IMG/VR virus record: IMGVR_UViG_3300031994_002305
Span: 165,073 to 229,072 of that record
Source: a virus
Lineage: Duplodnaviria > Heunggongvirae > Uroviricota > Caudoviricetes
DNA: 64,000 nt
Reading direction: 5' to 3' (one strand)
Shown: positions 28,539 through 54,987 of the stretch, one piece after another
Layout of the letters: the number at the start of each line of letters is the position of its first letter
How positions within the stretch are numbered: position 1 is the first letter of the stretch
Translations under genes and position numbers: made by a program
Notes under the pieces: model-generated
What the model was told of the DNA's origin: nothing
Seen by the model: only the letters and a program-made list of their open reading frames with translations
Databases searched by the model: none

Positions 28539-29156
28539 ATGAATACTTTTGTAATTAGTGAAGTAGTAGACCTTAATGAAGATAATTCATTTTCATTGGT
28601 TAATCCTGAGATGGAAAATAAAGGTACAGTAGTCATTAAAGATGGTAAGATTACTTTGTACTGGGAGAATGGAGATAAGGAGATTCAGTTCAATAATGAT
28701 TATGAATCATTGGTTGATTATGTTAATGATTGTGATCTGAAGTTTATTAAGCTACGTAATGGTAATCGTCGTTGGCATGAGTTTAATCCTAATCCAAAGT
28801 CAAGGAATATTGGAGACTGTACTCTTCGTGCATACTGTGCGGCATTCGATATTGATTGGAATAAAGCATTCGATATTGCTTCTCAGATTTCTAAGGAGAA
28901 TTCGTCTATGATTCAATATATGTTTAAGAAGATTATGACTGAACATTTTGGGTGTGAGGAAGATCCTGATTACAATAAGAAGAAGGTGAAGAATAAGGAC
29001 CGTATTACTGTTAATACATTTGCTATGACTCATCCTTATGGAACATATGTATTGGGTGTTCGTCAACATGCGGTAACAGTTAAGAATGGCGAGTATTGGG
29101 ATTCATGGGATTCTGGGGATAAGAAAGTAGATACTGTTTATATTGTTAAAAAGTAA
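28539..29156 (+). CDS. CHAP-domain-like cysteine/histidine peptidase (putative peptidoglycan hydrolase)
   Basis: 'RNIGDCTLRAYCAAF' supplies the Cys. 'VRQHAVTVKNGEYWDSWDSG' supplies the His with a downstream Glu/Asp, resembling the CHAP 'H-vaiV...g...v.E.N' motif. Confidence 0.35.
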   Translation: MNTFVISEVVDLNEDNSFSLVNPEMENKGTVVIKDGKITLYWENGDKEIQFNNDYESLVDYVNDCDLKFIKLRNGNRRWHEFNPNPKSRNIGDCTLRAYCAAFDIDWNKAFDIASQISKENSSMIQYMFKKIMTEHFGCEEDPDYNKKKVKNKDRITVNTFAMTHPYGTYVLGVRQHAVTVKNGEYWDSWDSGDKKVDTVYIVKK

Positions 29157-29788: not shown

Positions 29789-30016
29789 ATGAATTTTGAT
29801 AAAATAAAATATAGTGTAGTAGTTTATCCAAAATATGGAACATCTCCAGATGTAGGATCATATAATTCACCAGAAGATATAATTTTAAATATATATTATA
29901 TTCATTTTTATAATGATATTGATGAATTGTTAAAAAAGATAGAAAATTTAAAAAAAGGTGAAAGTATATTTGACAAACGCAAAGAACATTTTATAATTAT
30001 TACAAAAATTAATTAA
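29789..30016 (+). CDS. hypothetical small protein
   Basis: ORF, 75 aa. Confidence 0.3.
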   Translation: MNFDKIKYSVVVYPKYGTSPDVGSYNSPEDIILNIYYIHFYNDIDELLKKIENLKKGESIFDKRKEHFIIITKIN

Positions 30017-30021: not shown

Positions 30022-30561
30022 ATGGCTTGGTATACAATAATTTTTTTGGCAACATTTGCTTTATTCACAGTTAAACTTTTGTTATCATGGTTTGCTGGTG
30101 ATATTGATATGGATGTAGATTTTGATGGTGATAGTGATTTTGATGCATCAAGTGCATTTTCATTTAAAGGCATTTTACATTTTCTTTTAGGATTTAGTTC
30201 TTATTTGTTCTTACGTGCTAATATGTCAGCTGTTGATAAAATTGGTGATGTAGCACAGTTTGGAATAATTGATTATATGTTTGCTACTATTATTGGTGTA
30301 ATTTTAATGTTTCTATTATTTTATGGATATAAACTTGCACTTAAAGCAAATAATGAAACAAAAAATCCTCAAGATTTAATTGATAATTCAAAAGGAACAA
30401 TCTATATTAATTTAGGTAATGGACAGTATTCTGTTCAGGCTCATACATTGGCCGGTACTGTTAATGTAACTGCATTTTATTCAGGAGATGATTTGGAAGT
30501 AGGCACAGAAGTTTCATTAATTAAAGAAGGCAATCAAATTTTAATAAATAAAGAAGATTAA
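30022..30561 (+). CDS. NfeD-like membrane protein (short form: N-terminal TM helices + C-terminal OB-fold)
   Basis: It has three hydrophobic segments. The C-terminal beta-rich 'GTVNVTAFYSGDDLEVGTEVSLIKEGNQILINKED' is typical of the NfeD/YuaF C-domain. It lies immediately upstream of a flotillin gene, as in yuaF-floT operons. Confidence 0.45.
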   Translation: MAWYTIIFLATFALFTVKLLLSWFAGDIDMDVDFDGDSDFDASSAFSFKGILHFLLGFSSYLFLRANMSAVDKIGDVAQFGIIDYMFATIIGVILMFLLFYGYKLALKANNETKNPQDLIDNSKGTIYINLGNGQYSVQAHTLAGTVNVTAFYSGDDLEVGTEVSLIKEGNQILINKED

Positions 30562-30731
30562 TGAAAATTAAGGATATTTTTTGGAATAATACTGTTAAGT
30601 ATACTGCTTTAGGCATTGGCGCGGTTGGAGCCATTTTGATAGGTGGAAAATTATTATATGATTATTCAATGTATAGTAATTTGAAATATGTAAAGAAACA
30701 GATAAAGAAAATTAACGATGAAGATAACTGA
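30561..30731 (+). CDS. small membrane protein, 56 aa (not in track)
   Basis: Its ATG overlaps the NfeD stop. TM segment 'YTALGIGAVGAILIGGKLL'. It overlaps the alternative small ORF 30718-30909 by 14 nt. Confidence 0.2.
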   Translation: MKIKDIFWNNTVKYTALGIGAVGAILIGGKLLYDYSMYSNLKYVKKQIKKINDEDN

Positions 30732-30909
30732 ATTAATTAAATTTTTATGGGATGGTGTAGATATACCAATTACCAAAGAAGAAATTCAACATTCGGTTAA
30801 TGTACTTACTTTTGGTCTTAAAGAAGAGATTCAAAATGATAATGACTTACAAAATGTGAATATTAGATATAAACATAATTGTGATAACGAATATTTTATA
30901 GAAGAATAA
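30718..30909 (+). CDS. hypothetical small protein
   Basis: Track ORF, 63 aa. Confidence 0.25.
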   Translation: MKITELIKFLWDGVDIPITKEEIQHSVNVLTFGLKEEIQNDNDLQNVNIRYKHNCDNEYFIEE

Positions 30910-30940
30910 TTTTATTAACTTTTAATTTAAACATTAATTT

Positions 30941-33067
30941 ATGACAGGAACAATTTTAACATTGTGTTTAATTGGTGGTGGTGTACTTTTGTTTGTACTC
31001 ACAATTTGGGGAATTCTTTCACGTTATCGCCGTTCAGCACCTGATGAACTTTTGGTTGTGTTCGGTAAATCTGGAAAGATTACAATTCAGGAAAAGGTAT
31101 TTGATAATCCTGAAGATCCTACAAAGTTTAAGATGGTTGACAAGACCGTAACAGTACCTTCTAAGATTATTCAGGGTGGTGGTACATTTGTTTGGCCTAT
31201 TATTCAGGATTGGAAGAAAATGTCAATGAAGCCATTACAGATTAGTATTACTGTTGATGGTATTGATTCTCAAGCTATTCCTATGCACTTGCCTGTAGTA
31301 TTGACTACTGCTATCGCAAGAGATAAGGAGATTCAACAAAATGCCGCAACACGTTTCTTAAGCGTAACAGCTGCTGAAGCACAATCGCAAATTTCTGAAA
31401 TCCTTAAGGGTGAGACTCGTGCAATTATGGCCACAATGACCATTGAACAGATTAACGCTGACCGTACGATTTTCCTTGGTAAGGTTCGTGAATCTCTTGA
31501 ACAGGAATTAGCAAAGGTTGGTTATGAATTAACTAACATTAATATTTCGGAAATTACTGATGACGCTAACTATATTAAGAACTTAGGTCAGAAGGCTGCT
31601 ACTAAGGCTCAGGCATCTGCTGAAGCAGATATTGCTGAACAGAAGAAACAAGGAAATATTAAAATTGCAAATACTAAGAAGGAAGAGGAGATTGCTGTAG
31701 CAGATGCTGAACGTGAGAAGCAGGTTACTGTAAGTCAAACTCGTCAGGAACAGGAAGTAAAGGTTGCTGCAATTGAGAGGGATAAGCAAATTCAATTGGC
31801 TGAAGCAGAAAAGGAACGTGAATCTGGAATTGCTTCTCAAGAAGCTGAAAAGGCTGCTAATATTGCTGAGGCTCAAGCAATGGCAGAATCTAAGAAAGCT
31901 GAAGCTAAGGCAAAACAGGTAGCAAATGTATCTGCTGCTGATGCTGATGCTGCATCTAAACAAGCTGAGGCTGATGCTCGTAAGGTAGCTGCTGTGGCTG
32001 CTCGTAAGGCAGAAGCCGAATCTAATAAGGCAAAATCTGAAGCTGACCAGGCTAAGGCTGTTGCTACTGCACAAGCTGATGCTGAGGCAACTGAGAATGA
32101 GCAGGAAGCTTTGAAGCAGACTCGTATTGCTCAGGCTAACCAACAGAAGGAAGCTGAAATTATCAAGGCTACCCAAGAGAAGGAAGCTAAGCAGGCTGAG
32201 TATGAATCTAATAAGAGACAGAAAAAAGCTGAACAAGACAAGAAGGCTGGTGTCGCAGAGCAGATGTCAAAGATTGAAGTAGCACAAGCTCGTGCTAAGG
32301 CTGCACAGGCTGAAGCTGATGCTGTAAAGGTCGGTGAGACTGCTAAGGTTGAAGCTGAGATGTCAGTTAAGAAAACACAGCAGGAACGTCAGTTGGAAGT
32401 TAATGAAGCTGAGGCTAAGGCTAATGAAGCTAAGTTGAATGCTACTGAAATTATTCCTGCACAGAAGGCTAAGGAACGTGTAGTTATTGAGGCTCAGGCC
32501 ACAAAGCAGCAAGCTGAACTTGAAGCTGAAGCTATTAAGGCAAAGATTCTTCGTGAGGCTGAGGCTGAAGCAGAAAAGATTCGTTTGGCAAAGAATGCTG
32601 AAGCTGAAGGTGAAAAGAATATTTTGATGGCTCAGGCTGAAGGTAAGAGAGCTTCCCTATTGGCTGAGGCTGAGGCAGAACAGCAGAAAGCATTGGCTCC
32701 TGCTATGGCTCTTGAACGAATGGTTGCAGCTGTAGGTGGTAATCCTGATTTGGTTGTACAATATAAGATGGTTGACCAGTATAAGGGTATTGCTGAGGCT
32801 CAGGCTAAGGTACTTGAACATGTACAACTCGGTAATGTTACTGTTTACGGTGATAAGAATACGGGTGCTGACTTTGCTAAGAGCTTCGTATCTAATTTCG
32901 CTCCTGCATTGAGTATGATTAATGATGGTGTTAAGGATCAATTCAAGGGTCTATTCGGAATTGGTCAAAACAAACAGGAAACACTTCCTACACCTGAGGA
33001 ACCAAAATCAACAAAGGATAAGAAAAAGACAACAAAGAAGGATACTGACTTCGAAGATGTAGAGTAA
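30941..33067 (+). CDS. flotillin-like SPFH/band-7 protein with very long Ala/Glu/Lys-rich coiled-coil region
   Basis: N-terminus has a TM segment followed by 'SRYRRSAPDELLVVFGKSGK', the flotillin YqiK/FloT signature ('RY..a.P.e.lvv.G'). The SPFH domain is followed by roughly 400 aa of EA-repeat coiled coil. GC is markedly higher (about 45%) than the surroundings. Confidence 0.6.
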   Translation: MTGTILTLCLIGGGVLLFVLTIWGILSRYRRSAPDELLVVFGKSGKITIQEKVFDNPEDPTKFKMVDKTVTVPSKIIQGGGTFVWPIIQDWKKMSMKPLQISITVDGIDSQAIPMHLPVVLTTAIARDKEIQQNAATRFLSVTAAEAQSQISEILKGETRAIMATMTIEQINADRTIFLGKVRESLEQELAKVGYELTNINISEITDDANYIKNLGQKAATKAQASAEADIAEQKKQGNIKIANTKKEEEIAVADAEREKQVTVSQTRQEQEVKVAAIERDKQIQLAEAEKERESGIASQEAEKAANIAEAQAMAESKKAEAKAKQVANVSAADADAASKQAEADARKVAAVAARKAEAESNKAKSEADQAKAVATAQADAEATENEQEALKQTRIAQANQQKEAEIIKATQEKEAKQAEYESNKRQKKAEQDKKAGVAEQMSKIEVAQARAKAAQAEADAVKVGETAKVEAEMSVKKTQQERQLEVNEAEAKANEAKLNATEIIPAQKAKERVVIEAQATKQQAELEAEAIKAKILREAEAEAEKIRLAKNAEAEGEKNILMAQAEGKRASLLAEAEAEQQKALAPAMALERMVAAVGGNPDLVVQYKMVDQYKGIAEAQAKVLEHVQLGNVTVYGDKNTGADFAKSFVSNFAPALSMINDGVKDQFKGLFGIGQNKQETLPTPEEPKSTKDKKKTTKKDTDFEDVE
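31560..32700 (+). repeat. low-complexity GCT/GAA-rich coding repeats (flotillin EA-rich coiled coil)
   Basis: Repeated 'gctgaagct / aaggct' units. They cause the spurious antisense ORFs 31583-32236 and 32657-32941. Confidence 0.5.
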
Positions 33068-33087
33068 TATCTATATATATTTATGAG

Positions 33088-33118
33088 AAGGTTACTGATT
33101 AGTTTCAGTAACCTTTTT
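33088..33118 (+). terminator. rho-independent terminator (aaggttactga-ttagtt-tcagtaacctt + TTTTT)
   Basis: Perfect 11-bp stem with a T5 tail, directly after the flotillin gene. Confidence 0.65.
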
Positions 33119-33186
33119 GTTGTTTATAACATTGATTCATAATTTTTTATTTTATTTTTACTAAATAATATATGATAATTTAAATT

Positions 33187-33894: not shown

Positions 33895-36800
33895 ATGGCA
33901 AATTATGTCGATAATGATGTTAATTTTACTGGTATAAAAAATCCAAAAATTCAAATTGGTGGAATAATAGGAGTTGATAAATATAGTACTGATGCAATTG
34001 GAAATATCGTACAAAATGTTCCAGTAATTAATGCTATTGACATTGATTGGAATAATGCTTCAGCTAATGGTATTGGACCTATTAAAACAACTGGTGATTT
34101 AATTAAAGCCATAGCAAATGGTGGTGGAGGAGATCCAAATTCCATACCAATTTATGATACTGATACAGTAGAAAATTTACGAACAAATAACCAATTACCT
34201 AATAAATTTATTAGTGTTGATAATTCTTTAGATTCAAACAACAGTTTAAATATGATTCATTATTTATTATCTGTTGTTAATGGATTACAACAAGAAATAT
34301 CAAAAATCAAGAATACATTTAATAAAGGTATATATTCGTATAATGGAGAAGCTACATATATGTCAACAACAGTTGCACAATATGGGGATGACGAAGAACC
34401 ATTATGGGCAATTGATGAATCAGAATTAGATGAAATTGAAGGATTTGAATTTGATTATGAAAATAATAATAATTTTGAAGATAATGGATTATTAGCTAAT
34501 CAAAAAGAAAATAGAATGTATGCTTATATTACATCTTCTTCAAATATTAATATTGTATTAAGATCAAAAACTAATAATATATTTGAATTTAATTTAACGG
34601 ATTATATTACATGTGATAAATGTAATATAATGATATTAATTAGTCGTAAGCCAGAAAATAAAGAATATCCTATTAATTTTATTTACATAGATGTTACTGA
34701 TTATGTAACAAATAAAAAACTATTATCGGGATATATTAATAATGATAAACAAATAATCATAAATGAAACTGAAGTAGGATCAAATTATTATTTTAGTAAT
34801 ATTAATTTACTTAGTGGAAATTATGAAAAGTTTAACATATATGTTCAAAATAGATCTTTTGGTAATGAAATAGTTCCAGTTACACCAGATGAAGATGAAA
34901 CTTCATATAGAGTTGCTCACATAGCAATAAGAACTGTTAAAAACGCCAATATATTAAAGAAAATAAGAGAACAACTTGTTAATGGCGAATTTATTGTTAA
35001 TGAAGAAACAGAAAAATTATATTTAAAGATAAATAATAAAATTATAAATATAGGTGCTGCAAGTGGTGGTGATGACATGAACACAGATCCTGTTAACCCA
35101 GATCCTGACACACCAGACGATACAGATAATATGGAAAATTACGAAATTATTAAAGCTCTTGAAACACAAGGAGTATTATCACTTATATTCAAGAATGCTT
35201 CAATTGTTGACATATCACAAAAATATGATCCTTCCAATATTGAATCATATAAACTTAATAGTATTGGTTCTGTAAGATTTACTCACGAAGATACTGGTAA
35301 AACATATGAATATAAAACTAATGCTTATGGTGAACTGGAAAGTAAGTTAATTGAAGATTCAACAACACTTGCTGAAAAATTACAAGGAACTACATTATTC
35401 AGTGATTTTAAATCATCAAGAGGATTCGTTGGTCAATTAGGTCATGAATTAGCACAACGTGATGGTAAATCATTATCATATAATGCAGATTATGGTTTAT
35501 ATGCTGACCGTATAAAGATTGCATCAATTTATGGACCACTTGATACTGATGTAACTTATGGATGTTCACATGCATTTATTGAATTAGAAAATACAAGTAA
35601 TATTGATTTTAATTTACAAGGATGTCAATTGCATTATATTAAAAAATCAGATGAATCTAATTATTATGTTAAATATTCATTAGATTTAACTGGTATTATT
35701 CCTGCAGGAAGTACTTATTTGATAAGAGGTAAAAAGTATATTAAAAACGATGAAGATTCAAATTGTTTTATTCATGTTAATAACTATGACCAAGAATGGT
35801 ATATTAATGGAGAATTATTAGATTTAACAATGAATAAGAATAATGGGTCATATGTTTTAATTATGTCATATCATGGAAAAATTAAAACAGCAAATTCATA
35901 TATTGATTTCTTGTCTCCTACAGATATGTTATATAAATTAGGTTTAGATATTAATGAATCTACAATTGCAGCAAATACAGATTTAGGATTATATTTAGGT
36001 ACAACAGAAAAGAAAGGAAGTTTAACAATATGTGCACCTAATGATGGTGAAACAAAAATAGGTGAAATTATTTGTCAGGATGCAAACGATAAAGCTATTA
36101 AAAATGCACCATTAGTTTATGCTAAAGGTTTTATTGATGCATTAGCATTTAATAAAACTGCATTCGGTATTACATCAGCATTTGATAGCTTATCATCTAA
36201 CACAATATGTCGTGGCACATATGTATTAGATCCAGCAAAGCAAGCTTATAACTCTTTTACAATGAGAGATAGTTCTAGAAACAGATGGGCTAAAAAGGGT
36301 AATGACTATCAATATTTAAAATTAGAAAAAAGATATATAGAATTTCCTAAGACTATAACAACTCGTGATGTTGATTATTATGCACCTAAAGCTTCTTTTG
36401 AACATAAAAATGTAATAACAGATAAAACACATTTTGATAAGAAAAAACCTAATGCAGTAACAGTATCTTATGGTGCAAATGTTTATACAACTAGATGTTT
36501 TAACTGGTTATCAGCCGCTAATTTAGATGAATATGTTTGGATATATGATTCTAATGGAAATCAATTAGGAGTATTTGAATCATATAAGAAAGTAGATACT
36601 GCTATAACACAATCTAATTCATTCCCACGTAGAAAAGAATTTTCAGTAGATGTTAATAATATTGTCTATTGTGATTATAGAATTAATGATGTTATAGATA
36701 GAAGTAATAAAAACAAAGATGTAACATACAAAAAGTATGCAACAGCTCCACGTGCATGTGGTATATTCGCAGGATCAAATGATTTCTTTGTATCTCATAA

Positions 36801-38739
36801 ATGTATTATAGATATTGTTGAAAATCCTGTTAATGAAGAAACAACATACTCATATATTGTCGGTCAAGCTGATAAGAATAAAAAACCTTTAGAAGGATAT
36901 TGTTCTGAAAGAAGATACTTTACATTATATCCTGATACATATACACCAGTTATATATCAAATAACAGACCAGCAAGGATTCCATTGGATTGAATATCAAG
37001 TTTGGGCTGCTGCTGCTGAAAGTTTAAATCAAAAGATTATTTATGAAATGGATGCGGCACGTGATGGAAATGGACATGGTATTATGCCTATCATTATTAA
37101 TACTGGTGATGCTACACAATCAGGTTCTCGTATTAATGAATGGTTAGATTATTTTATTGCTGGTGATTGCTTATTTAATCATTTTGAACAAAATAATATT
37201 GTTGGTAATAATGACTTAAATGGTACTGATATTCAGGCATTAGGTACGGGTGATGACCCAGGTAAATCAAATGCTTATTATTATTACTTATTTAATTGTA
37301 ATGAAGTCAATAATTTCTTTGGTGGTGATGTAAATCCACATTATCCAATTGTAAATAATACTTATGTACCATCATTATATTATTTAGACACTAATAATTT
37401 TAGATTAGTAATGTGTAATTCTGAATTAACTCCTATTAACTGTCGTGATTGGTTTAATTTAAGATGTACTCCATATGAAGGTGATAATACAGAATATACA
37501 ATTAATATTTATACAGGATTTAATTTAGTTGGTAGTAAAACAGATAGTCCTGAAAAATATGTGGCTGATGCATTTGGATTTACACCTATTTATACATTAT
37601 TATGGCATGCATTTAATAAATTAGAAAATGGTAATCGTAAATGCATAGCAGCTTGTCATGAAATGCCATTTACAGTTGTAACAAATGCATGTTGTTCAGA
37701 ACCAAATCAATTAGAAAGATTTAGAAGTATGTCTGATGCTGCATCTCCAGGTAAATTAATTGGTAGTCATATGAATCAAATGGAGCCAACAGAAAATGGA
37801 GCAGGTGTTTATTGGTTTAGTAGATTACTTGAAAGTATGGGAGTTAAATTATGTATTGGTGGTCATAAACATACATACGCAATATCATACCCAGTTAGAG
37901 AATATTATAAATATTATAAAAATGGTACTTTAGTTAGTAGTTTAACAGATGGTCCAATGCAAATGGATGAAACATTGGCATTCGAAGAACGTGATTCAAT
38001 AAACGATTATAAAGTTCTTTGGAAATGGAAAGCTTCAGCTCCAACAAATAATCGTAATGTAGAATACCCTTGGTGTGAAACTGCATTAAAGGATAGTAAG
38101 GAAAAACTTTATTTAGATGGTGATAAGAATACATCTGAAACAACAGGTATGATTAACTGGTCTAAATTACCAATAACATATATGGAAAATACAATAAATT
38201 CAGATCTTTTACCAATTAATAAATTTTATCCTTCTAAACCATTATACGTAGATGACGGATATCGTGATAGTGCAGTTACTTATATAATGTGTCAAGCAAC
38301 TGGATATAAATTAACATCAAATAAAGAATTACCTACTCCTAACCAAAAATTCTCAAGAATTATACCAGTAACAAGTAATGGTTCTGATGGAACAGATACG
38401 CCAGATAATAACCAAAAATTCCCAATGTATATTAAATATGTTGTAGATAATTTAGGACAATGCAATGTATATTTAGCAAGAGCAAAAAATATATTTAATG
38501 GTAAGTATAAATTTACACAAATTGCTTATGGAACTAAAGATATTGAATGGACATATTTAATTGATAAAGCTCAATATGTTAAGAGTTCTGATGAATCAAA
38601 ATTGGATGTAGTTTCAAAATATAATGATTCAACAACACAAGCAGAAATAGATGAAGTTAAACTAAGTGCTGAAACTTACGATAACTATGGATTATGGTTA
38701 AAATCTGAAAAGAAAATGATTCCAACAATTAATATTTAA
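33895..38739 (+). CDS. giant virion structural protein (1614 aa), putative tail fibre/baseplate-associated
   Basis: Very long N/Y/T-rich ORF. It is terminated by a strong hairpin at 38762 and sits next to a 2830-aa ORF and the capsid/tail module. No enzymatic motif found. Confidence 0.55.
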   Translation: MANYVDNDVNFTGIKNPKIQIGGIIGVDKYSTDAIGNIVQNVPVINAIDIDWNNASANGIGPIKTTGDLIKAIANGGGGDPNSIPIYDTDTVENLRTNNQLPNKFISVDNSLDSNNSLNMIHYLLSVVNGLQQEISKIKNTFNKGIYSYNGEATYMSTTVAQYGDDEEPLWAIDESELDEIEGFEFDYENNNNFEDNGLLANQKENRMYAYITSSSNINIVLRSKTNNIFEFNLTDYITCDKCNIMILISRKPENKEYPINFIYIDVTDYVTNKKLLSGYINNDKQIIINETEVGSNYYFSNINLLSGNYEKFNIYVQNRSFGNEIVPVTPDEDETSYRVAHIAIRTVKNANILKKIREQLVNGEFIVNEETEKLYLKINNKIINIGAASGGDDMNTDPVNPDPDTPDDTDNMENYEIIKALETQGVLSLIFKNASIVDISQKYDPSNIESYKLNSIGSVRFTHEDTGKTYEYKTNAYGELESKLIEDSTTLAEKLQGTTLFSDFKSSRGFVGQLGHELAQRDGKSLSYNADYGLYADRIKIASIYGPLDTDVTYGCSHAFIELENTSNIDFNLQGCQLHYIKKSDESNYYVKYSLDLTGIIPAGSTYLIRGKKYIKNDEDSNCFIHVNNYDQEWYINGELLDLTMNKNNGSYVLIMSYHGKIKTANSYIDFLSPTDMLYKLGLDINESTIAANTDLGLYLGTTEKKGSLTICAPNDGETKIGEIICQDANDKAIKNAPLVYAKGFIDALAFNKTAFGITSAFDSLSSNTICRGTYVLDPAKQAYNSFTMRDSSRNRWAKKGNDYQYLKLEKRYIEFPKTITTRDVDYYAPKASFEHKNVITDKTHFDKKKPNAVTVSYGANVYTTRCFNWLSAANLDEYVWIYDSNGNQLGVFESYKKVDTAITQSNSFPRRKEFSVDVNNIVYCDYRINDVIDRSNKNKDVTYKKYATAPRACGIFAGSNDFFVSHKCIIDIVENPVNEETTYSYIVGQADKNKKPLEGYCSERRYFTLYPDTYTPVIYQITDQQGFHWIEYQVWAAAAESLNQKIIYEMDAARDGNGHGIMPIIINTGDATQSGSRINEWLDYFIAGDCLFNHFEQNNIVGNNDLNGTDIQALGTGDDPGKSNAYYYYLFNCNEVNNFFGGDVNPHYPIVNNTYVPSLYYLDTNNFRLVMCNSELTPINCRDWFNLRCTPYEGDNTEYTINIYTGFNLVGSKTDSPEKYVADAFGFTPIYTLLWHAFNKLENGNRKCIAACHEMPFTVVTNACCSEPNQLERFRSMSDAASPGKLIGSHMNQMEPTENGAGVYWFSRLLESMGVKLCIGGHKHTYAISYPVREYYKYYKNGTLVSSLTDGPMQMDETLAFEERDSINDYKVLWKWKASAPTNNRNVEYPWCETALKDSKEKLYLDGDKNTSETTGMINWSKLPITYMENTINSDLLPINKFYPSKPLYVDDGYRDSAVTYIMCQATGYKLTSNKELPTPNQKFSRIIPVTSNGSDGTDTPDNNQKFPMYIKYVVDNLGQCNVYLARAKNIFNGKYKFTQIAYGTKDIEWTYLIDKAQYVKSSDESKLDVVSKYNDSTTQAEIDEVKLSAETYDNYGLWLKSEKKMIPTINI

Positions 38740-38833: not shown

Positions 38834-41800
38834 ATGAAATTACATAATAACGAAAATGATTCATTTATAATAACATCAAATGACATATTAGTAAATGGTG
38901 ATAAATCTGATGTTTTAACTAACGTTATTAATAAGCAAGAAGATAAGTTAACAAGTTTAGAACGAAATATCAAATGGCTTTATAAATATGGAGGTACAGG
39001 ATCAAAAGGTTCTGGATCATCTAATGGTGTTTCGTTTAGTGTAGATGCAAATGTATTATTTGGTAATATAATTATTCAAAAATCTATTAATCAAAAATTA
39101 ATATTATCAAATAGTAATAAAAAATATGAAACATTATCAATAAGTTTAAATAAAACAAACATATTGAATATTTATCAAGCTAGAATTACTGGTACTGGAT
39201 TTTCACAAAGTAAATGGTATGATTTAACACAAGATAATGATTATGGATTATCATTCAATGTACCTGTTGATGATACTGGAACAATAAAAATAGAAATTAA
39301 AGGTACAAGTACATTAACTGGTGATAACGATAATGCAACATATTTATTTACATATATCAAAAATCCTTATGTATTTAATTTATCATTAATAGATAATAAT
39401 GATAAAAACATATTAGATGGAGATAATTTATATGTTAATGAAGCAATAGAAAAGGGAGTAAACTTATTTATTGATTATAACATAGTTTCATCAAAACAAA
39501 TATCATATGAAATAACATGTGACGAAACTATGTTAACTAATTATGAAGGAATAATTAATGATAGTGAACATGGTGTAGGTTTAGGTAATTTGTCTATTCC
39601 TTTTAATTCATCATTTATATCAAATGACAATAATTATGGATCTCATACAATTAACATTAAATTTAAAATAGATCCTGATGAGTCATTAGGAATATCAAAT
39701 GGACAGATTATTACTAAGAATATATCATTTACATATATTCCTAATAATCAAATATTCTTTAAAATAGAATCAACAAATAATAAAGCAAAAATATATAAAT
39801 ACTCAGAAACAAATTATAATAATGCAATTATTCAATTTAATTTATATAAAAGTTATTATGAGTATTTTAAAATTCTTGAAAATGAACAAGAATTAGACCC
39901 AGTTATTCGTGAAGGTTTGATTAATACATTAGTAGATGAATCATTAAGACCTTCAATAACAGATAATCAATTAAAAGATGTAATTGAAAATAAATTAAAC
40001 GAAATTGAATCAGAACTTTATATATTTAATGTAGGATCTTTACAATTATATTTACAAGCATATTTAGGATCAAATACATTAAATACGGTAGATGTTTCAT
40101 ATATTTTAGATGATGGTGAAAATATAATTGATAATGAATTATTAAGTTCATTACAATATAGAAAACGTCAAATGATTAATATACCAGTTCAAGAAGAAGG
40201 TGTATATAAATTATGTATTTATTCGAAGAATCAAACTGAGCAACAACGTATTTATTACTATTTTGCTGCATTTGATAAAAATAGTGGAATTAACTGGTAT
40301 AATGCTGATGTTGAATTTAATGAAATTGATTTATTCTTTAAAGAAGGAAAAATAGGAACACATCATGAAACTAATTTAAGTCTTAATTGTTTAAATACAA
40401 TTAAAAATTATGAAAGTGTTCAAAAGATTCAAAAATATGCTAATGGAGAACCTTCACAATTATTTGATATTAGTAATGAATTAAATTTATTAGCTCAACC
40501 AGATTGTGACATAATGTTATCATTTGGTATTCAATATTCATATATTAATAGTGATAATGTAAAGTTAATGTCAATTTTAACAAATAACAATAATAGCTCA
40601 TTAAATCTTGACATATATCAAAATAGAATTAATGAATATAATTCATCAAATACATTAGCAAAAATATTCATACCAAAGGAACATAATTATGCTCCTTCAA
40701 ATAATGAAAACTATCATTTATTAACATTATATAAAAGATATGTTTATGAAACAAATTCACCTTATTATGAAATAATAATTTATATTGATGGATGTCCTGA
40801 AGCAGCATTTAAAAACTTTGTTAAAGATTCATCATGTTGGTCTTCAGTATATTTAAATAACTCAAATTTTTCATTGAACTTTTTTGAGTTAGCATATTTT
40901 CAACATAATAAAAATAGTTTAAAAAGATTTGACAAAAATGAAACATCAGGAACAGTTACACAAAATAAAGTAACATATCTTGATGATATAGCAATATCTG
41001 AATATTATTATAAGTATATAAGTACACATAAATCTTTAGGTAATATTATTTCATTACTTGCTAATCTTCGTAATTTCAAAGAAACAGATTATGGAATGAT
41101 AGAAGTTGCTTCAAGAAATGATATTGATTCAATTGCAAATGGTATTGATATTCCAGTTTTACTTTTAGAATATACAGATCAATCTGATAATGAATTTGTT
41201 AATTGGTTTACTAAATCATATAAAGAAACCGAATTAACAAAAGATAAAAAGAAATTAGATTACATATATTATTCAAGTGGTTTAAATAAACTTTCACAAA
41301 TTGATTTACCCGATGAATTAGCTGGTTCATATTGGTATGCTGCATTGCAAGGTTCTTCTACAGGTGAATTATTTGATAAAAACTTAACATTAGGTATTAA
41401 TAACCAAACACCTGGTCGTATGGGTATATTTACACCTAATTTCTATGACGTTAATGAAACTTTATTTAACAGTAATAATTTAACAGAAGAAGAACAAACA
41501 ATTGTATCAAAGGCAAAAAATTCATTCTTACCAGAAACTGCATATACATTAAAGGCAGACGTTGTTGACTCTTCACATAGTAACAATACTGCTGTTGGTG
41601 CATTCGTTAATGCAAATACAACACAATTTAATATATTATTTGATGGTGGTAATACAAATAAAGGTAATAATAAATATGTTAATTATATTAAAAACTGTTT
41701 GTTAGGTTTCCCTGTATTAGTATTTGCTAATGTTAACAGAAATGGTAAATCAACATATTATTTTCTTGGTATATACAATTTCAACTTAGGTCGTGATTCA

Positions 41801-44800
41801 TATTTTAATATGGGTTATTATAGTCCACGTATTTTACAAGAACAGAATCAAATTTCATCTGCATTAAATAATGCATCAGGTAAAGATTTCATTGTAACAT
41901 ATGTAGAATTTACTAACTTAGATATGAAAACATTACCTGTTGATGATGGTGTTATTGTTGCAGAAATTCAAGGTGGTAAAGAATATTTCGATTTTTCACA
42001 ATATCATTCAACAATGTTATTACCACAGGATGTACAACAAGGCACCGATAATGGATGTATGTTTGGTGATTTTGTTCCAAAATATGATCCATCTAAACAA
42101 TCAAATGCAGATTTACGTATAAGATATCATATACCTAGATTAGTTGAAGCAATTTCTAAAGCAGGTGGTTATTTATTTGATAATGTATTACATAAACATT
42201 TAGGTGAATACAAATATGGATATAATAAGTATATTGATAGAGGATATGGTTCATCTATATTTGATTCAGCAAACCAAGTTCCAAATTATAAATTACAATA
42301 TGTAAGAGCACCTCAAGAAAGTGATACTGATTTACAATATTTAATTCATAATTTCCAAAAAGATGAACGTGGTCAAATTATTTTAAATTCAAATGGACAA
42401 CCATCAATTGACCCATCATATTATGCTGATGATTATGCAGTTGGACGTTTATTAGATACACATATTGATGAAGGTTTTGATCCTTATCAACGTGGTAATG
42501 ATCCTATATTAGATTATACAAGTGCAACTGAATATTATACTGCATGTATGGGATTTGGTCTTGTTGACTCAGTAATGAAAAACCTTAATGTTAAATCATG
42601 GAATGCAACGTATGTTGAAGGTGCGGATAATTATAAAAATGGTAAATGGTATGTAGCATTTTATGATATGGATACATCATTTGGTAGAGATAATGGTGGT
42701 GCAAAAACTTCTTATTTTGCATTCTCAGATTATTGGAAAACAGGAAAAACTACTGAATTAGAAGAACCAACAATATATAGAGATTTCTATCCAATGTCAG
42801 ATCCAGAAAATCCTAATGTCGTTGGACAATCAATGGCAGAATCTGGATTTGATATACCTTCATCATATTTATTTGCTGTTGCTAAATATGCCCATTTATT
42901 AAATGATGAAAAATCTGATTCATTATTAGTACCAAAAGGTTCAATACCTCACAATATATGGGCTAGATGGAGATGTATCTCAAACAATATAGGAGATATA
43001 TCAGGTCCTGGAACAGGTGAATTAAGATCTGCAGATTATTTCATACAAAAATATTTCATTAGAAATTTAGATAATATCCCTGAACAAATTTGGGCATTAA
43101 ACTATAGACTTAAATATTTAAAACGTATTTCACCAGATTCAACAAATAAATATAACTATACATATAATACTGATGAAAATGGCTCATTTGAAAACCTTAA
43201 TTACATTCCATTCCATGGAAAAGGCATTAATGAGTTACATGAATGGTTAGGTGGTCGTTTACATATATTAGATTCATATTTTAATTTAGAAGGTAATGAT
43301 AAATTAAATATTAAGTATCTTGAATATACTGAAAATGAATCTAATGAAAATAATCCTAAATTTACACCTATAATAAGATTAGATAGTGTACAAGGTTATA
43401 AATATAATGATATTGATACTCCTAATGCAGATAGTAATGGTAATTATAAATGGTTATCATCATCTTATAATGATAAAATTCCAGATATAACTCCTGATGT
43501 ATTAGGTTCAAATAAAGATATTGAAATATTAAAGGATATATTTTCAATAAATGGAAATGGTGCACGTTATTCGCAACCTATTGATATTTATATAAAATCA
43601 CAAGAATTTTCACCATTTAACATTACAACAGCTATGGGTGAAAAATATAAATATTTATTGGAAGATCCTGACACCGAATATCACATATCATATAAACCTA
43701 GAGGATTAGTTATCACAAAATTTGGTGGTTCGACTCTTTGGACATATATTAGAAATCTTAATACAGTAATTAATGAAAATACATTAACATTAAATACTGA
43801 AAACTTAGATCAAATTGTATTAACAAAAGGTAAATGTAGTACTTATAATATATCAGCGATGAAATCATTAAAAATTGTAAGTATTATTAAGGATTTATAT
43901 GATAATGATTCACAGTTTACTGGAACTTTAACATTTGCATTAGATGCGAATAATACTGACCCATATCCTGATTTAACAATAATTGAATTAATAAGAACAG
44001 AAATAACATTAACATGTAATGGTGTTGGTGTATCAGTAATTAATTTATCTAATACACAATCAACCGACACAAAAATTATAAACTGTAAAAACTTAGAATC
44101 AGTTAACTTATCAGGATTTACTGCTCCTTCTTTGGATATTATGCCAGGATGGTCAAATGATATGGAAATTAATTTATCAAAAGTTAATAAGATAAAAATT
44201 AGTCCTAAAGATAAAACAGCTAACGAACGTAAAATTTCTATTAAAAATGACTTAAAATTAACAACAGTCATATTGGAAGATTTTACTCATATTTCTTTAG
44301 CATATTGTCCTAACTTATATAATATTTGCATATTAAATCCTGAACATGTAGAATCTTTAGAGATAATAAAATGTAATACTGATTCAAAAGCTAATCATAA
44401 TTTACATATTTATTTTAATGAATTAGATGAATCATCAGAAAATGATTCAACAACAATTGACTTAAAACAATTAACAAATATTCGTTCATTTAAATTTAAT
44501 GGTACAGGTGGATTCAATACATTAGATGCATCAGAATCAGATGGTGAACAAATTACTATTAATGGAAATACATATAACTGTTTAAAATTATATGGAGATG
44601 CCTTCTCAGGAACATCTTTAGAAAGAATAATAACTAAACCTAATGTATATTTATATATTAATAGTGATAATATCAATGGAACTACTGGAACATTTAATGA
44701 TTCAAATTATGGATCATATCCTAATAAAATGATTATTGGTAAAAATGTTAAAAAATTAGATTCATTATTTAAACATGATTTGGGTGGTACTTTAACTTCA

Positions 44801-47326
44801 TCACCTCATATAGATAGTGGTTTTGTTGCTGATTTTATTAATTGTAATGAAGATTTGGTAATATTTGAAAATATTGATAATATTGTTTCATTAAATGGAT
44901 TATTCTATGGACAAACACGTGTCGCTAATAGTAAAACTAATCATCCATTTACATTAAATAAATTTAAGAATGTAAATGATATTAGCTATTTATTCTTCGG
45001 TACAAGTATATTTACATATAATAAAGATATATTTGGTACTGATGATAACTATTGTGGTATGAATGTTATACAGAACAATGGAGAATTTAAGTTAGATAAC
45101 TTTATACCTTCTGGTTCAAATATTGACGTAAATTTATTTGATTATTACATCAATAATATTAAATGTTTAATTTCTGATAATGATTATATCCAAGTTAGAT
45201 TAAATATTTATAATGATGGTGATGTTGTACAAATTAAAAATTTATTTAGTAATTTAAATTATGATACAAATATTTTAGAATCATTTGAAGGATTTGTTAT
45301 TAATGATATGGATGGTGTTGATTATGCCGACTTGTTATATGACCATACAACTAATAAATTTAAATTCCCTAAGTTAAAATCAATTAAAAACTCATTTAAT
45401 AACTTAAATAAGTATAGTATTAATTTTAATAGAATTGGATTGTATGAATATGATATGTCAAAATTAACATTATATAATTCATTTAATTTCTCTAACGAAA
45501 ATATCGAAAAAATGAACATTACGCAAATAATTAATTTTGATACATTTGCAAATAATTCACTATTACCTTGGCATGATAGTATTTATTCATTAAATGGTGC
45601 AAAGGAAATATATGAATCTGATTTATTAATATTATTAAAGAAGTTAAACACTAAAAAATGCATTACATTAAATAACTTATTTAAAAATACAAATATTATT
45701 ATTGATGATGATAAAGTAAATAAAAATGAATTAATATTACATTCATCAGATATAGTTGAACCTTATATATTTAGAGCATGTAACGGATTATTTAAAAATG
45801 CAAAATTAGTAGATAGAAATAATGTAGAATATGGCATAGAAATTACATCTAATACTTTAAGTAAGTTTACTAATGTTGAAACATGGACAGAAGCATTTAT
45901 GGGATGTACATTACATAAGAATTTGCCATTAAATATGTTTAATTTAAAAACGGGATTAGGTGATTATAAAATTGACTATTATACAGAAAAACATAAAAAC
46001 TTATCATTAATGTTTGCTGATGTCAAATTAGATTCAAATGAATCTTGGTTTAATTATAATTGGACTCCTGAAGATTATACAAAATATAATAATGGCATAG
46101 AATTAAATGGATCATATAGAAAAAATATTACTACATTAGAAGGTACAGTAATTTCAAATTATGAATGTAAAGATAATTATGTACAAAATGGCATTACTGT
46201 TTATGGAGAACATATTGTTAAAAACTTAATATTACCTTGGGATATATTTTATGGTTGTACATCAAATTGTAATATTGATGGCTTCATTGCAAATTCTGAA
46301 TTTGAAGGAATATTACCTACAAATCTATTCCCTAAAAATACTAAGTTATATAATTTAAGTTTTTCAAATACATTTAAAGATGTATTAGTAATTCCTAATT
46401 TTGTAAATGATATAATTATTGAATATGTAAATAAATCACTTGCAAATACTGTATGTTATGTTAAGTGTCCAGGATATGTATTTATACCTGAATATTTCAC
46501 AAATTCTACTGATTTAACATGTTCATTTAACTTTAAAATGTTATTACCTAACAGTGAATCTTTAGATAGAGTTAATTCTGATAAAATACATAATATTCCT
46601 AATAATGGTATTAATAAGACAATAGATAACGTTGATTCAATTGAATTGTATTTTGTATTACAAGATAATTCAGTTAGCTTTGGTAATTTAACATCTATTA
46701 AAGACTTTTTACCTTATGATAATGTTATTACATTATATGATGAACTTAATCAAACAACAATTGAAAAATCATTGCATACTTTAGATACTAGTATTAGAGC
46801 AAATCAAGATAATATATTTAATGCAAGAACTGATTATGGAATTCATTATTATATGTATTTAAATAAAGAATTATTATCAACATCAGATTCTTCATATCCT
46901 TGGGTTGAAGTAATTATTAAAGATTCTACTGATAATGATGTTACAATATATGAAGCATTTAATAAAGATGAAACTGATACAGGATTACCAATTGTTAATA
47001 ATACAAAATTATTATATGATTCAATATTTAATGATGATATAATATCATTTACTTATGGAAATATCATTACACGTGGTTTTAATCTATATAATGTTCAACC
47101 AATTAGTGGATCTAGTCCATTTATTAATATAAGTGCTATATGGTCTGATTTTGGAAAGAATATTATATTACCTTTAAATGAAAGAGGTGCAGGAGTATAT
47201 TATGATAATGTATTTAATTTAGGTAGCAATTTAGTTAAGCATATTAGCATAGATAATATCGACCGTAAACAACAAACATCATTAGATAACTATGCTGAAC
47301 ATAGATTAATTGATATTGATTATTAA
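38834..47326 (+). CDS. giant protein (2830 aa), putative virion structural protein (fibre/baseplate/ejected protein)
   Basis: Uninterrupted 8.5-kb ORF, N/Y/S/T-rich, followed by the terminator at 47341. No catalytic motif was found; the canonical two-barrel RNAP DxDGD box is absent. Confidence 0.55.
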   Translation: MKLHNNENDSFIITSNDILVNGDKSDVLTNVINKQEDKLTSLERNIKWLYKYGGTGSKGSGSSNGVSFSVDANVLFGNIIIQKSINQKLILSNSNKKYETLSISLNKTNILNIYQARITGTGFSQSKWYDLTQDNDYGLSFNVPVDDTGTIKIEIKGTSTLTGDNDNATYLFTYIKNPYVFNLSLIDNNDKNILDGDNLYVNEAIEKGVNLFIDYNIVSSKQISYEITCDETMLTNYEGIINDSEHGVGLGNLSIPFNSSFISNDNNYGSHTINIKFKIDPDESLGISNGQIITKNISFTYIPNNQIFFKIESTNNKAKIYKYSETNYNNAIIQFNLYKSYYEYFKILENEQELDPVIREGLINTLVDESLRPSITDNQLKDVIENKLNEIESELYIFNVGSLQLYLQAYLGSNTLNTVDVSYILDDGENIIDNELLSSLQYRKRQMINIPVQEEGVYKLCIYSKNQTEQQRIYYYFAAFDKNSGINWYNADVEFNEIDLFFKEGKIGTHHETNLSLNCLNTIKNYESVQKIQKYANGEPSQLFDISNELNLLAQPDCDIMLSFGIQYSYINSDNVKLMSILTNNNNSSLNLDIYQNRINEYNSSNTLAKIFIPKEHNYAPSNNENYHLLTLYKRYVYETNSPYYEIIIYIDGCPEAAFKNFVKDSSCWSSVYLNNSNFSLNFFELAYFQHNKNSLKRFDKNETSGTVTQNKVTYLDDIAISEYYYKYISTHKSLGNIISLLANLRNFKETDYGMIEVASRNDIDSIANGIDIPVLLLEYTDQSDNEFVNWFTKSYKETELTKDKKKLDYIYYSSGLNKLSQIDLPDELAGSYWYAALQGSSTGELFDKNLTLGINNQTPGRMGIFTPNFYDVNETLFNSNNLTEEEQTIVSKAKNSFLPETAYTLKADVVDSSHSNNTAVGAFVNANTTQFNILFDGGNTNKGNNKYVNYIKNCLLGFPVLVFANVNRNGKSTYYFLGIYNFNLGRDSYFNMGYYSPRILQEQNQISSALNNASGKDFIVTYVEFTNLDMKTLPVDDGVIVAEIQGGKEYFDFSQYHSTMLLPQDVQQGTDNGCMFGDFVPKYDPSKQSNADLRIRYHIPRLVEAISKAGGYLFDNVLHKHLGEYKYGYNKYIDRGYGSSIFDSANQVPNYKLQYVRAPQESDTDLQYLIHNFQKDERGQIILNSNGQPSIDPSYYADDYAVGRLLDTHIDEGFDPYQRGNDPILDYTSATEYYTACMGFGLVDSVMKNLNVKSWNATYVEGADNYKNGKWYVAFYDMDTSFGRDNGGAKTSYFAFSDYWKTGKTTELEEPTIYRDFYPMSDPENPNVVGQSMAESGFDIPSSYLFAVAKYAHLLNDEKSDSLLVPKGSIPHNIWARWRCISNNIGDISGPGTGELRSADYFIQKYFIRNLDNIPEQIWALNYRLKYLKRISPDSTNKYNYTYNTDENGSFENLNYIPFHGKGINELHEWLGGRLHILDSYFNLEGNDKLNIKYLEYTENESNENNPKFTPIIRLDSVQGYKYNDIDTPNADSNGNYKWLSSSYNDKIPDITPDVLGSNKDIEILKDIFSINGNGARYSQPIDIYIKSQEFSPFNITTAMGEKYKYLLEDPDTEYHISYKPRGLVITKFGGSTLWTYIRNLNTVINENTLTLNTENLDQIVLTKGKCSTYNISAMKSLKIVSIIKDLYDNDSQFTGTLTFALDANNTDPYPDLTIIELIRTEITLTCNGVGVSVINLSNTQSTDTKIINCKNLESVNLSGFTAPSLDIMPGWSNDMEINLSKVNKIKISPKDKTANERKISIKNDLKLTTVILEDFTHISLAYCPNLYNICILNPEHVESLEIIKCNTDSKANHNLHIYFNELDESSENDSTTIDLKQLTNIRSFKFNGTGGFNTLDASESDGEQITINGNTYNCLKLYGDAFSGTSLERIITKPNVYLYINSDNINGTTGTFNDSNYGSYPNKMIIGKNVKKLDSLFKHDLGGTLTSSPHIDSGFVADFINCNEDLVIFENIDNIVSLNGLFYGQTRVANSKTNHPFTLNKFKNVNDISYLFFGTSIFTYNKDIFGTDDNYCGMNVIQNNGEFKLDNFIPSGSNIDVNLFDYYINNIKCLISDNDYIQVRLNIYNDGDVVQIKNLFSNLNYDTNILESFEGFVINDMDGVDYADLLYDHTTNKFKFPKLKSIKNSFNNLNKYSINFNRIGLYEYDMSKLTLYNSFNFSNENIEKMNITQIINFDTFANNSLLPWHDSIYSLNGAKEIYESDLLILLKKLNTKKCITLNNLFKNTNIIIDDDKVNKNELILHSSDIVEPYIFRACNGLFKNAKLVDRNNVEYGIEITSNTLSKFTNVETWTEAFMGCTLHKNLPLNMFNLKTGLGDYKIDYYTEKHKNLSLMFADVKLDSNESWFNYNWTPEDYTKYNNGIELNGSYRKNITTLEGTVISNYECKDNYVQNGITVYGEHIVKNLILPWDIFYGCTSNCNIDGFIANSEFEGILPTNLFPKNTKLYNLSFSNTFKDVLVIPNFVNDIIIEYVNKSLANTVCYVKCPGYVFIPEYFTNSTDLTCSFNFKMLLPNSESLDRVNSDKIHNIPNNGINKTIDNVDSIELYFVLQDNSVSFGNLTSIKDFLPYDNVITLYDELNQTTIEKSLHTLDTSIRANQDNIFNARTDYGIHYYMYLNKELLSTSDSSYPWVEVIIKDSTDNDVTIYEAFNKDETDTGLPIVNNTKLLYDSIFNDDIISFTYGNIITRGFNLYNVQPISGSSPFINISAIWSDFGKNIILPLNERGAGVYYDNVFNLGSNLVKHISIDNIDRKQQTSLDNYAEHRLIDIDY

Positions 47327-47406: not shown

Positions 47407-47479
47407 TTAACATAATAACAGTAAGTTATTTATTTTTATTTGATATTTATTTATAACAAAAATATTGGAATACAATAAT

Positions 47480-49093: not shown

Positions 49094-49114
49094 ATAATAT
49101 TCTATCTGAAAAGA

Positions 49115-49138: not shown

Positions 49139-49190
49139 AATATATAATTCTCAAAAGAGAAATAACAAATAAATTTTGATTATAAATAAT

Positions 49191-54967: not shown

Positions 54968-54987
54968 TCGTAAATTTATAGGCGAAA

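Follow-up and report, generated by a model that had tools for sequence, protein, structure and literature searches.

A 64,000-nucleotide stretch of the IMG/VR virus record IMGVR_UViG_3300031994_002305 (hereafter the window, meaning this whole stretch) was found to carry, at positions 30022-33120, what reads as a four-gene transcription unit, the conserved core of which is a short NfeD2-type membrane protein followed by a flotillin. The identity of this pair, together with its origin through an old capture from a Bacteroidales-like lineage, appears to us very likely. When the mechanism proposed below, a flotillin cage on the host inner membrane, is added to identity and origin, the explanation as a whole is still reasonably probable. 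The features of the unit are as follows (positions in the window; aa, amino acids; TM, transmembrane; ORF, open reading frame; AF2, AlphaFold2):

29970-29997, + strand: candidate promoter-like site of the sigma-70 type (TTGACA-16 nt-TATAAT, 12/12), lying 25 nt upstream of the NfeD-like gene's start and within the 3′ end of ORF 29789-30016.
30022-30561, + strand: short NfeD2-type flotillin partner of 179 aa, recognised by its AF2 fold and its homology to cellular partners.
30561-30731, + strand: 56-aa ORF predicted to contain a single TM segment; its start overlaps the stop of the NfeD-like gene (TAATG); a variable accessory gene.
30718-30909, + strand: small ORF of 63 aa overlapping the preceding ORF by 14 nt, without family match; a variable accessory gene.
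30915-30925, + strand: TTAACTTTTAA motif within the 31 nt that lead up to the flotillin start, with variants before flotillin in several relatives.
30941-33067, + strand: flotillin (SPFH2-type) of 708 aa, recognised by its Band_7 match, its PDB relatives and its alignment with the Bacteroides finegoldii protein.
31571-32731, + strand: Ala/Glu/Lys/Gln-rich helical (coiled-coil) region, aa 211-597 of the flotillin, from AF2 secondary structure and composition.
33083-33120, + strand: intrinsic-terminator-like hairpin followed by TTTTTGTTGTTT (dG -20.7 kcal/mol, z -5.8 against shuffles), which ends the module.

The flotillin begins with a TM segment (aa 4-26, within an anchor region of aa 1-32), directly after which stands RYRR, with SRYRRSAPDELLVVFGKSGK occupying aa 27-46. 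In the Pfam scan, its Band_7/SPFH domain (aa 73-235) was matched by PF01145 with 77.7 bits against a cutoff of 23.6 (E 1.4e-21). The sole PDB sequence matches at E <= 1e-3 were flotillin-2 and flotillin-1 (E 1.8e-21 to 1.4e-10), human flotillin-2 (E 1.8e-21) and flotillin-1 (E 2.5e-19) being the best solved relatives; stomatin, HflK/C and prohibitin were not among the matches at this threshold. The sole NCBIfam match was the FloT model NF058507, reached with 126 bits against a cutoff of 700; the phage protein belongs to the flotillin family but is no equivalog of Bacillus FloT. Moreover, the protein aligned end to end with the B. finegoldii flotillin (34.7% identity over aa 1-683). The C-terminal Flot domain PF15975 gave no match in the window flotillin at E <= 0.1, but it does match the flotillins of B. 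finegoldii and of the phage csAssE-Sib.

In the low-confidence AF2 model, the TM helix is followed by an alpha/beta SPFH region and by helices at aa 211-258, 262-501 and 507-597, which together form a near-continuous helical stretch of about 387 aa (aa 211-597) broken at the conserved Pro506. The composition of this region is dominated by Ala (26%), Glu (16%), Lys (13%) and Gln (10%). Two further helices (aa 602-671) and a disordered Lys-rich tail are predicted, at the same low confidence, to complete the C-terminus. A beta-hairpin insertion at aa 46-72 is present in the window flotillin and is shorter in the consensus of its own clade. An internal duplication of the coiled coil was considered and set aside, the evidence for it being weak (62 bits against a shuffle mean of 45.8 and a shuffle maximum of 59.3). 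A preliminary description of this DNA, made from its letters, had recognised a flotillin N-terminus, an SPFH domain and an unusually long Ala/Glu/Lys coiled coil, and had proposed a Band_7 profile search; the results given above bear it out on all these points.

The 179-aa protein encoded upstream is, as judged from fold and homology, a short NfeD2-type flotillin partner. It is laid out as TM1 (aa 3-25), an acidic loop (aa 26-45), TM2 (aa 48-66), TM3 (aa 82-110) and an OB-like beta barrel (aa 123-176), and the AF2 model has three TM helices and, at the C-terminus, a barrel of five strands, with a mean predicted local distance difference test score (pLDDT) of 82, rising to about 90 in the barrel. 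In the TM1-TM2 loop, D31 and D33 are invariant and D35-G36 near-invariant, giving a DxDxDG pattern, which is a known calcium-binding loop motif. By BLASTP, it shares 34% identity (E 3e-20) with the 165-aa product of the gene that precedes flotillin in B. finegoldii. A profile of the phage partner family aligned with nine cellular flotillin partners by hhalign at 99.4% (E 1.4e-21, 162 columns), and a broader phage-family profile aligned with the Bacillus thuringiensis NfeD family protein alone at 93.9% (E 1.5e-7, 153 columns). In a Foldseek search of a viral structure library, the top match, full-length with E 7e-14, was a UniProt entry named 'NfeD-like C-terminal domain-containing protein'. 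Against PDB sequences, a profile of close partner homologs gave no NfeD match, and the broader profile ranked the YuaF structure 2k14 first at a non-significant E of 0.1. A homolog search seeded with the flotillin partner of a Gemmatimonadota genome returned two proteins only.

Two results speak against this assignment of the partner. Scans with Pfam, NCBIfam, PHROGs and PADLOC gave no useful match to the 179-aa protein; in particular, the Pfam NfeD model PF01957 did not match it and the YqiJ thresholds were likewise unreached, and hhalign of the phage partner against E. coli YqiJ alone returned nothing. However, PF01957 matches just two of 46 members of the partner family (best E 6e-5), and accepted flotillin partners used as positive controls miss its cutoff of 29.1 bits as well: the B. 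thuringiensis RefSeq 'NfeD family protein', encoded directly upstream of a flotillin, scored 17 bits, and the Persicobacter flotillin partner scored 16.4 bits. The Pfam NfeD model does not cover the flotillin-partner branch, and since the controls miss too, its miss in the window is an uninformative criterion. Hinderhofer et al. describe the similarity of flotillin partners to NfeD as very weak (PMC2636767). Membership in the YqiJ family was rejected, because PF21001 (YqiJ_N) and PF07290 (YqiJ_OB) both match E. coli YqiJ and neither matches the phage partner. Thus, of the NfeD-like protein announced in the preliminary description, the TM helices and the OB-fold stood, with the fold and the 99.4% hhalign match behind them, while the PF01957 search proposed there came back empty, an outcome that the description itself had named as refuting and that, in view of the controls, is not a valid criterion.

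To place the pair in its wider setting, 24 related loci from ENA, Logan, IMG/VR, GenBank and one metagenome-assembled genome (MAG) were compared, 23 of which include upstream DNA; L-numbers below are locus names. A partner homolog was located upstream of flotillin and on the same strand in 23/23 loci with upstream DNA. The two genes are separated by 3-1067 bp with 0-5 small ORFs between them (21 loci with both genes located), and by 379 bp with two overlapping small ORFs in the window. The NfeD gene had been described as immediately upstream; it is upstream and co-oriented, but the interval with its two ORFs has to be placed between. The window's four ORFs overlap or nearly abut. Counterparts of the 56-aa ORF occur at the same position in L007, L019 and L021 (56 aa), L013 and L022 (54 aa), and L014 and L015 (48 aa), and are missing from 10 of the 21 relatives with both core genes located; counterparts of the 63-aa ORF (63-70 aa) occur at the same position in L007, L014, L015, L019 and L021. 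The same upstream-partner order is also seen in Bacteroides, Phocaeicola, Persicobacter, Fulvitalea, Bacillus, Pseudomonas, a Gemmatimonadota MAG and E. coli. The yuaF-floT/yqiK arrangement proposed earlier, a short NfeD upstream and flotillin downstream, was recovered together with the family homologies, and the pair is the phage's counterpart to the cellular yuaF-floT and yqiJ-yqiK operons. The NfeD-like family comprises 306 clusters at 50% identity (E <= 1e-3), and flotillin homologs form 1247 clusters at 90% identity (E <= 1e-10).

The strong terminator that had been placed after flotillin was found at 33083-33120 as a hairpin with a T-tract. Hairpins of differing sequence with T-runs were seen at the same place in 11 of 16 relatives inspected, and one further relative has a hairpin without a T-run. 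On the initiation side, the perfect sigma-70 site at 29970-29997 was not conserved in the relatives inspected, and promoter-like sites in the region numbered 21 against 20.5 expected from shuffles, with no excess. The Bacteroidales promoter consensus differs from the sigma-70 consensus TTGACA/TATAAT. Sequences resembling TTAACTTTTAA stand upstream of flotillin in L002, L005, L013, L016 and L021; as a general phage promoter the motif was rejected, since the window holds no excess of it (11 matches, with 11.4 expected).

Some relatives depart from the window in what surrounds or separates the core genes. A gene of about 155 aa for a beta-flower protein (PF21786, Bflower_3, six-fold beta flower; E 1e-27 to 5e-31) lies between the NfeD-like gene and flotillin in L004 (5554-6033), L005 (5680-6141) and probably L025 (2997-3467), where the window has two small ORFs instead. 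In one subclade (L017, L018, L023, L026 and L028), the pair is located within a tRNA array, with 4-10 tRNA genes in each 9 kb. These arrays repeatedly include Gln(UUG), Glu(UUC) and Ala(UGC), and Lys(UUU) occurs once (L028), these being the four commonest residues of the coiled coil. A tRNA with a CUA anticodon (amber suppressor-type) at 942-1019 of L017 hints at TAG recoding in that phage.

The origin of the pair was addressed with a neighbor-joining tree (516 columns, 200 bootstraps) of 17 jumbo-phage flotillins and a few cellular sequences. The 17 jumbo-phage flotillins formed one clade with 100% bootstrap, which was sister to a group of Bacteroides, Phocaeicola and the phage csAssE-Sib with 94% bootstrap. 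Partner similarity ranks the bacterial groups alike, with Bacteroidales at 33-34%, Cytophagales at 24-25% and others not significant, and this agreement between the two genes points to their joint capture. The nearest cellular flotillin found is only about 41% identical to the phage flotillins, which argues that the capture is old and not recent. Together, these data indicate that the operon was taken up as a unit, once and long ago, from a Bacteroidales-like lineage, and was then passed on vertically within a clade of jumbo gut and rumen phages. Phages have gained flotillin on at least three separate occasions, namely by this jumbo clade, by csAssE-Sib and by the T5-like phage KIT04.

A search of 185,579 species genomes yielded no close donor of the flotillin; its two matches were a Methanobrevibacter-binned contig (74% identity) and a Gemmatimonadota flotillin (31%). 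The former, L010 (CACYVR010000057.1, 5.9 kb), was binned in the rumen Methanobrevibacter MAG RUG12316 and encodes a flotillin 74% identical to that of the window; given its 30.6% GC, it is probably a phage fragment mis-binned by composition, an archaeal host being possible. Two PLSDB entries carry the cellular pair. In L031 (NZ_OY725925.1, B. finegoldii 'plasmid 23', 177 kb), truA, purC, ubiE and shikimate dehydrogenase adjoin the pair, and because of these housekeeping genes the entry looks like a chromosomal fragment, not a plasmid. L032 (OY726012.1, Phocaeicola massiliensis 'plasmid 38', 163 kb) is an unannotated stretch.

Base composition had been offered earlier as a sign of host capture, on the premise that both genes are GC-richer than the phage background. 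This holds for flotillin (41.8% GC; GC content at third codon positions, GC3, 0.29) but not for the partner gene (28% GC, GC3 0.12), which resembles all other coding sequence of the window (27.6% GC, GC3 0.13). When the flotillin was re-encoded with phage codon usage, its GC content was 35.4%, and hence about 55% of the GC excess is forced by the Ala/Glu-rich protein sequence. The remainder reflects a true synonymous bias, since the GC3 of 0.29 compares with an expected 0.115 +/- 0.011. The bias towards G-ending codons runs evenly through the gene, from the SPFH part over the coiled coil to the C-terminal part: 81% of the Lys codons are AAG, 61% of the Gln codons CAG and 30% of the Glu codons GAG, against about 20%, 10% and 5%, respectively, in most other window genes. 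The same bias occurs in the flotillins of most AT-rich relatives, the partner genes of which stay near background. These flotillins share just 60-85% amino-acid identity with that of the window, a distance at which synonymous sites should be saturated, and we therefore infer that the bias is maintained by selection and is not a relic of transfer. Hence the GC argument failed, the partner being at background, over half of the flotillin excess being set by amino acids and the bias being clade-wide, while the capture itself stood on other grounds (the sister position to Bacteroides and Phocaeicola and the 34% identity of the partner to Bacteroides), although as an old event.

High expression of the flotillin is a plausible and unproven cause of its codon bias, because the structural genes resemble the flotillin gene in favouring AAG but not in favouring CAG and GAG. 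Avoidance of poly-A was also considered: A-runs in the gene are far below those of a phage-codon encoding but not below those of shuffles of the gene's own codons, so that this test does not set such avoidance apart from the general codon bias. A 205-aa ORF at 28539-29156 (phrog_3754), of ordinary amino-acid composition, has flotillin-like codons (GC3 0.286, AAG 76% of Lys, GAG 54% of Glu).

The window has 27% GC and is nearly all coding, on the + strand, up to about 57 kb. A family scan of the window proteins identified the following structural genes:

47465-49093, + strand: prohead protease.
49176-50951, + strand: major capsid protein.
51198-54284, + strand: tail sheath.

In a phage collection, the nearest relatives of the capsid protein belong to Tenacibaculum phages pT24 and PTm1, which are jumbo phages of Bacteroidota, to Sphingomonas phage PAU, to an uncultured 462-kb phage and to Lak megaphages, all at <=38% identity. 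Contigs bearing homologs of the flotillin or NfeD-like gene reach 465 kb. Based on the structural genes, the capsid relatives and these contig sizes, the window derives from a large, uncultured, AT-rich phage of the myovirus type, to which nothing in the curated phage collection is closely related. Jumbo gut phages of one published clade have genomes of 360-402 kb, Bacteroides/Phocaeicola hosts and a GC content of 27-30% that resembles the window's, and flotillin is nowhere mentioned in the paper describing these Jug jumbo phages (PMC12880540).

Two giant ORFs, 33895-38739 (1614 aa) and 38834-47326 (2830 aa), lie downstream of the flotillin module. The former shares about 35% identity over >80% of its length with crAss-like phage proteins annotated as 'phosphatase' and with unannotated Lak megaphage ORFs, and it has a weak lamin-tail-domain match; the latter passed the family scans without any match. 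A second GC-richer stretch (48001-55000, 33-40% GC) falls on the genes for the protease, the capsid, the sheath and the probable tube, in which GC3 (0.16-0.22) and AAG use are raised.

As to mechanism, flotillin-1 together with flotillin-2 builds a membrane-attached cage of 44 subunits (PMC11260169), and QmcA-YbbJ is a 26-mer according to a work cited in PMC12624060. By analogy, the N-terminal helix of the phage flotillin would be inserted in the host inner membrane, and the protein would oligomerise on the cytoplasmic face into an SPFH dome like that of flotillin-1/2, with the partner sitting inside the enclosed membrane patch and touching flotillin via its OB domain. The cage would probably be larger than the host's, since its wall helix exceeds that of the host protein by about 100 aa. 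Measured on our own reading of the alignment, between the landmarks NYI(K/V)NLG at the SPFH end and the proline of the conserved I(I/V)PA(Q/E), the first wall helix (CC1) spans about 290 aa in the phage protein (aa 216-506), against about 189 aa for the B. finegoldii flotillin. In SPFH domes, the subunit number tracks CC1 length (y = 0.1782x + 10.22; PMC12624060), and extrapolation, from a poor model and self-chosen landmarks, gives about 44 subunits for Bacteroides and about 62 for the phage.

The flotillin may be produced in large amounts, as its codon bias suggests, and its likeliest role would be to maintain or rearrange the inner membrane, in its order, its integrity and the organisation of its proteins, over a long jumbo-phage infection. 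The phage may supply its own flotillin because host synthesis would be shut down and the host flotillin would need replacing. Envelope stress and the way in which phage lysis turns out in Bacillus have been connected with membrane-repair and SPFH systems (PMC8581546, PMC8844932), which makes the membrane-maintenance idea reasonable, if unproven. Both the cage scaffold and this role are put forward tentatively, as a possibility that falls a little short of even chances.

Several points weigh against this account or limit it. The role given to the phage flotillin is drawn from sequence and analogy. The AF2 monomer has a pLDDT of 54, which leaves helix boundaries and subunit estimates rough and the model unfit for a fold search. 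The flotillin tree combines sparse cellular sampling with a simple distance method, and the Bacteroidales host is probable rather than observed. The AAG preference of the flotillin is common to the capsid, sheath and probable tube genes, but its CAG/GAG preference is not, and causes besides high expression could underlie the bias.

Other readings of the pair have to be set beside the cage that maintains the membrane. The cage could instead serve in conflict, sequestering host inner-membrane proteins within or beyond its patch, such as DNA-entry factors on which competing phages depend or abortive-infection effectors that disrupt membranes, and thereby bringing about superinfection exclusion or anti-defence. 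SPFH cages do enclose client membrane proteins, an example being HflK/C with FtsH (PMC13220708), the independent gain of flotillin by at least three unrelated phage groups suggests a general benefit, and a beta-flower gene is inserted in the module of some relatives. Yet no PADLOC defence model was matched, a defence-system component was rejected as an idea, recognisable conflict genes are not adjacent in the window, and the sequence gives no pointer to a specific client; we regard this use of the cage as unlikely. A bolder proposal, to which we give slightly less credence again, is that the jumbo clade re-engineered the host flotillin system into an outsized cage, which together with the DxDxDG loop of the partner would make up a phage-built, possibly Ca2+-responsive membrane compartment, organising sites of replication, assembly or lysis or acting as a shield against membrane-targeting abortive defence; if true, such a compartment would be to the membrane what the protein 'nucleus' is in other jumbo phages. 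It is also improbable, and by our estimate more so than either of these, that the pair modulates a host membrane protease (FtsH or a ClpP-like NfeD partner), a role put forward for other SPFH/NfeD systems, and so stabilises phage or host proteins during infection. According to PMC2636767, SPFH1 proteins (QmcA/YbbK with YbbJ) and SPFH3 proteins (HflK/C) interact with FtsH, and the partner family of the Gemmatimonadota flotillin, which matches the phage partner family by hhalign, has a bacterial relative (P0389) with the JGI COG name 'membrane protein implicated in regulation of membrane protease activity'. The phage protein, however, is of the SPFH2 type, for which protease regulation is not an established role, and its partner is a short form of 179 aa with no Pfam protease match.

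A part for the long coiled-coil protein in the virion or in assembly, for instance as a scaffold or a membrane-linked assembly platform, is very unlikely. It is encoded on the same strand about 14 kb upstream of the structural block (47465-54284), and part of its codon bias (AAG) is like that of the structural genes, but it is anchored by an N-terminal TM segment, contains a bona fide SPFH domain and is homologous over its full length to a chromosomal Bacteroides flotillin. Furthermore, its neighbourhood varies among relatives (tRNA arrays, DUF7487, replication genes), and for this reason it is not tied to the structural module. Scarcely credible, finally, is host DNA mis-assembled onto the phage or a recent, possibly transient capture, despite the nearness of the flotillin's 41.8% GC to the 43.6% of the Bacteroides locus. 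The partner and the small ORFs are phage-like in composition, the pair's genes overlap or abut phage ORFs, and the sole close match in the species genomes is the 5.9-kb Methanobrevibacter-binned contig. The identity of about 41% to the nearest cellular sequence and the clade-wide conservation speak against a recent capture. A chimeric assembly, named in the preliminary description as what could undo its interpretation, is excluded because the synteny of the pair is conserved across all 23 independent contigs with upstream DNA, amid varied phage flanks.

Bacterial flotillins and their NfeD partners are widespread, but what they do in the cell is a matter of continuing debate. For bacteria, both kinds of gene and their pairing are textbook knowledge, and individual phage flotillins are already labelled in GenBank and UniProt. 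A literature search on phage flotillins found no paper, so the earlier remark that the pair is uncharacterised in phages was right as to function, while annotations existed for csAssE-Sib and KIT04 in GenBank and for a viral NfeD-like entry in UniProt. What appears unreported in the searched literature is the full operon as a conserved, monophyletic trait of a jumbo-phage clade, along with its extended coiled coil, the codon bias maintained across the clade and the Bacteroidales origin. Because the Pfam NfeD model misses the partner branch, flotillin-partner genes are routinely left 'hypothetical'. A phage lineage that retained the entire operon under purifying selection throughout a deep clade and lengthened the cage-wall helix offers comparative evidence: the retention of the operon, the longer helix, the codon bias and two further independent captures suggest that flotillin scaffolds matter for infection. 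The pair is thus a tractable experimental handle on both flotillin function and jumbo-phage membrane biology.

Compared with known systems, the human flotillin-1/2 44-mer cage (PDB 9bq2, 9l3g; E 1.8e-21 to 2.2e-18) contains the best solved relatives of the phage flotillin and is the structural template for the membrane dome. Eukaryotic flotillins, however, are lipid-anchored hetero-oligomers without NfeD, and the phage flotillin is known here from its sequence and a monomer prediction. E. coli QmcA-YbbJ is a further template for the dome and in addition shows an SPFH-NfeD complex (Tan et al. 2024, as cited in PMC12624060), QmcA being of the stomatin type, unlike the phage flotillin. E. coli YqiJ-YqiK resembles the phage pair in having an OB-domain membrane protein upstream of a flotillin family protein, and the N-terminus, SPFH domain and coiled coil of YqiK align with the phage flotillin at 23% identity, whereas YqiJ differs from the phage partner in having Pfam models of its own and no hhalign match. 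In the YuaF (NfeD2)-FloT/YuaG system of Bacillus, represented by a B. thuringiensis plasmid pair (WP_000242441.1 and WP_000155019.1), a short NfeD of about 180 aa with TM and OB parts is encoded directly upstream of flotillin, as in the phage; the soluble domain of YuaF is PDB 2k14. The pairwise identity of the two partners is not significant but their profiles match over the full length, and the phage flotillin is 27% identical to the Bacillus protein and about 180 aa longer.

Two other phages carry flotillins acquired independently, both of which lack the extended coiled coil. In csAssE-Sib (OR575929), a 'transmembrane protein' (WOZ57346) and a 'flotillin family protein' (WOZ57345, 566 aa) form a phage-borne pair; its partner is 32% identical to that of the window, while its flotillin matches that of B. 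finegoldii at 63% identity and groups with two Bacteroidaceae (100%). An acyl carrier protein gene (L001 7191-7442; PP-binding, E 3e-6) lies directly upstream of that pair. The flotillin of Vibrio phage KIT04 (BBL19217, 473 aa) groups with Pseudomonas (94%), and upstream of it an 82-aa protein (L029 2189-2437) with three hydrophobic segments, a short acidic TDLDD loop and no OB barrel has the look of an NfeD2 partner of which only the membrane part is left.

Among the cellular relatives found, the nearest is the Bacteroides pair, represented in B. finegoldii by the 165-aa 'hypothetical protein' WP_007757712.1 and the 548-aa flotillin WP_007757713.1 and also present in Phocaeicola massiliensis, with the same gene order and strand as in the phage. 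The flotillins are 35-41% identical end to end, and the partners share TM1, an acidic D-x-D loop, the SFKG-x-x-HF motif, two further TM helices and the barrel. The phage version differs in a flotillin that is 160 aa longer, about 100 aa of which fall in the first coiled-coil helix and others in the hairpin insertion, in a DxDxDG loop in place of DVDVDTD, and in the two extra small ORFs of its unit. Moreover, the Bacteroides genes follow the ordinary codon usage of their host, unlike the phage flotillin.

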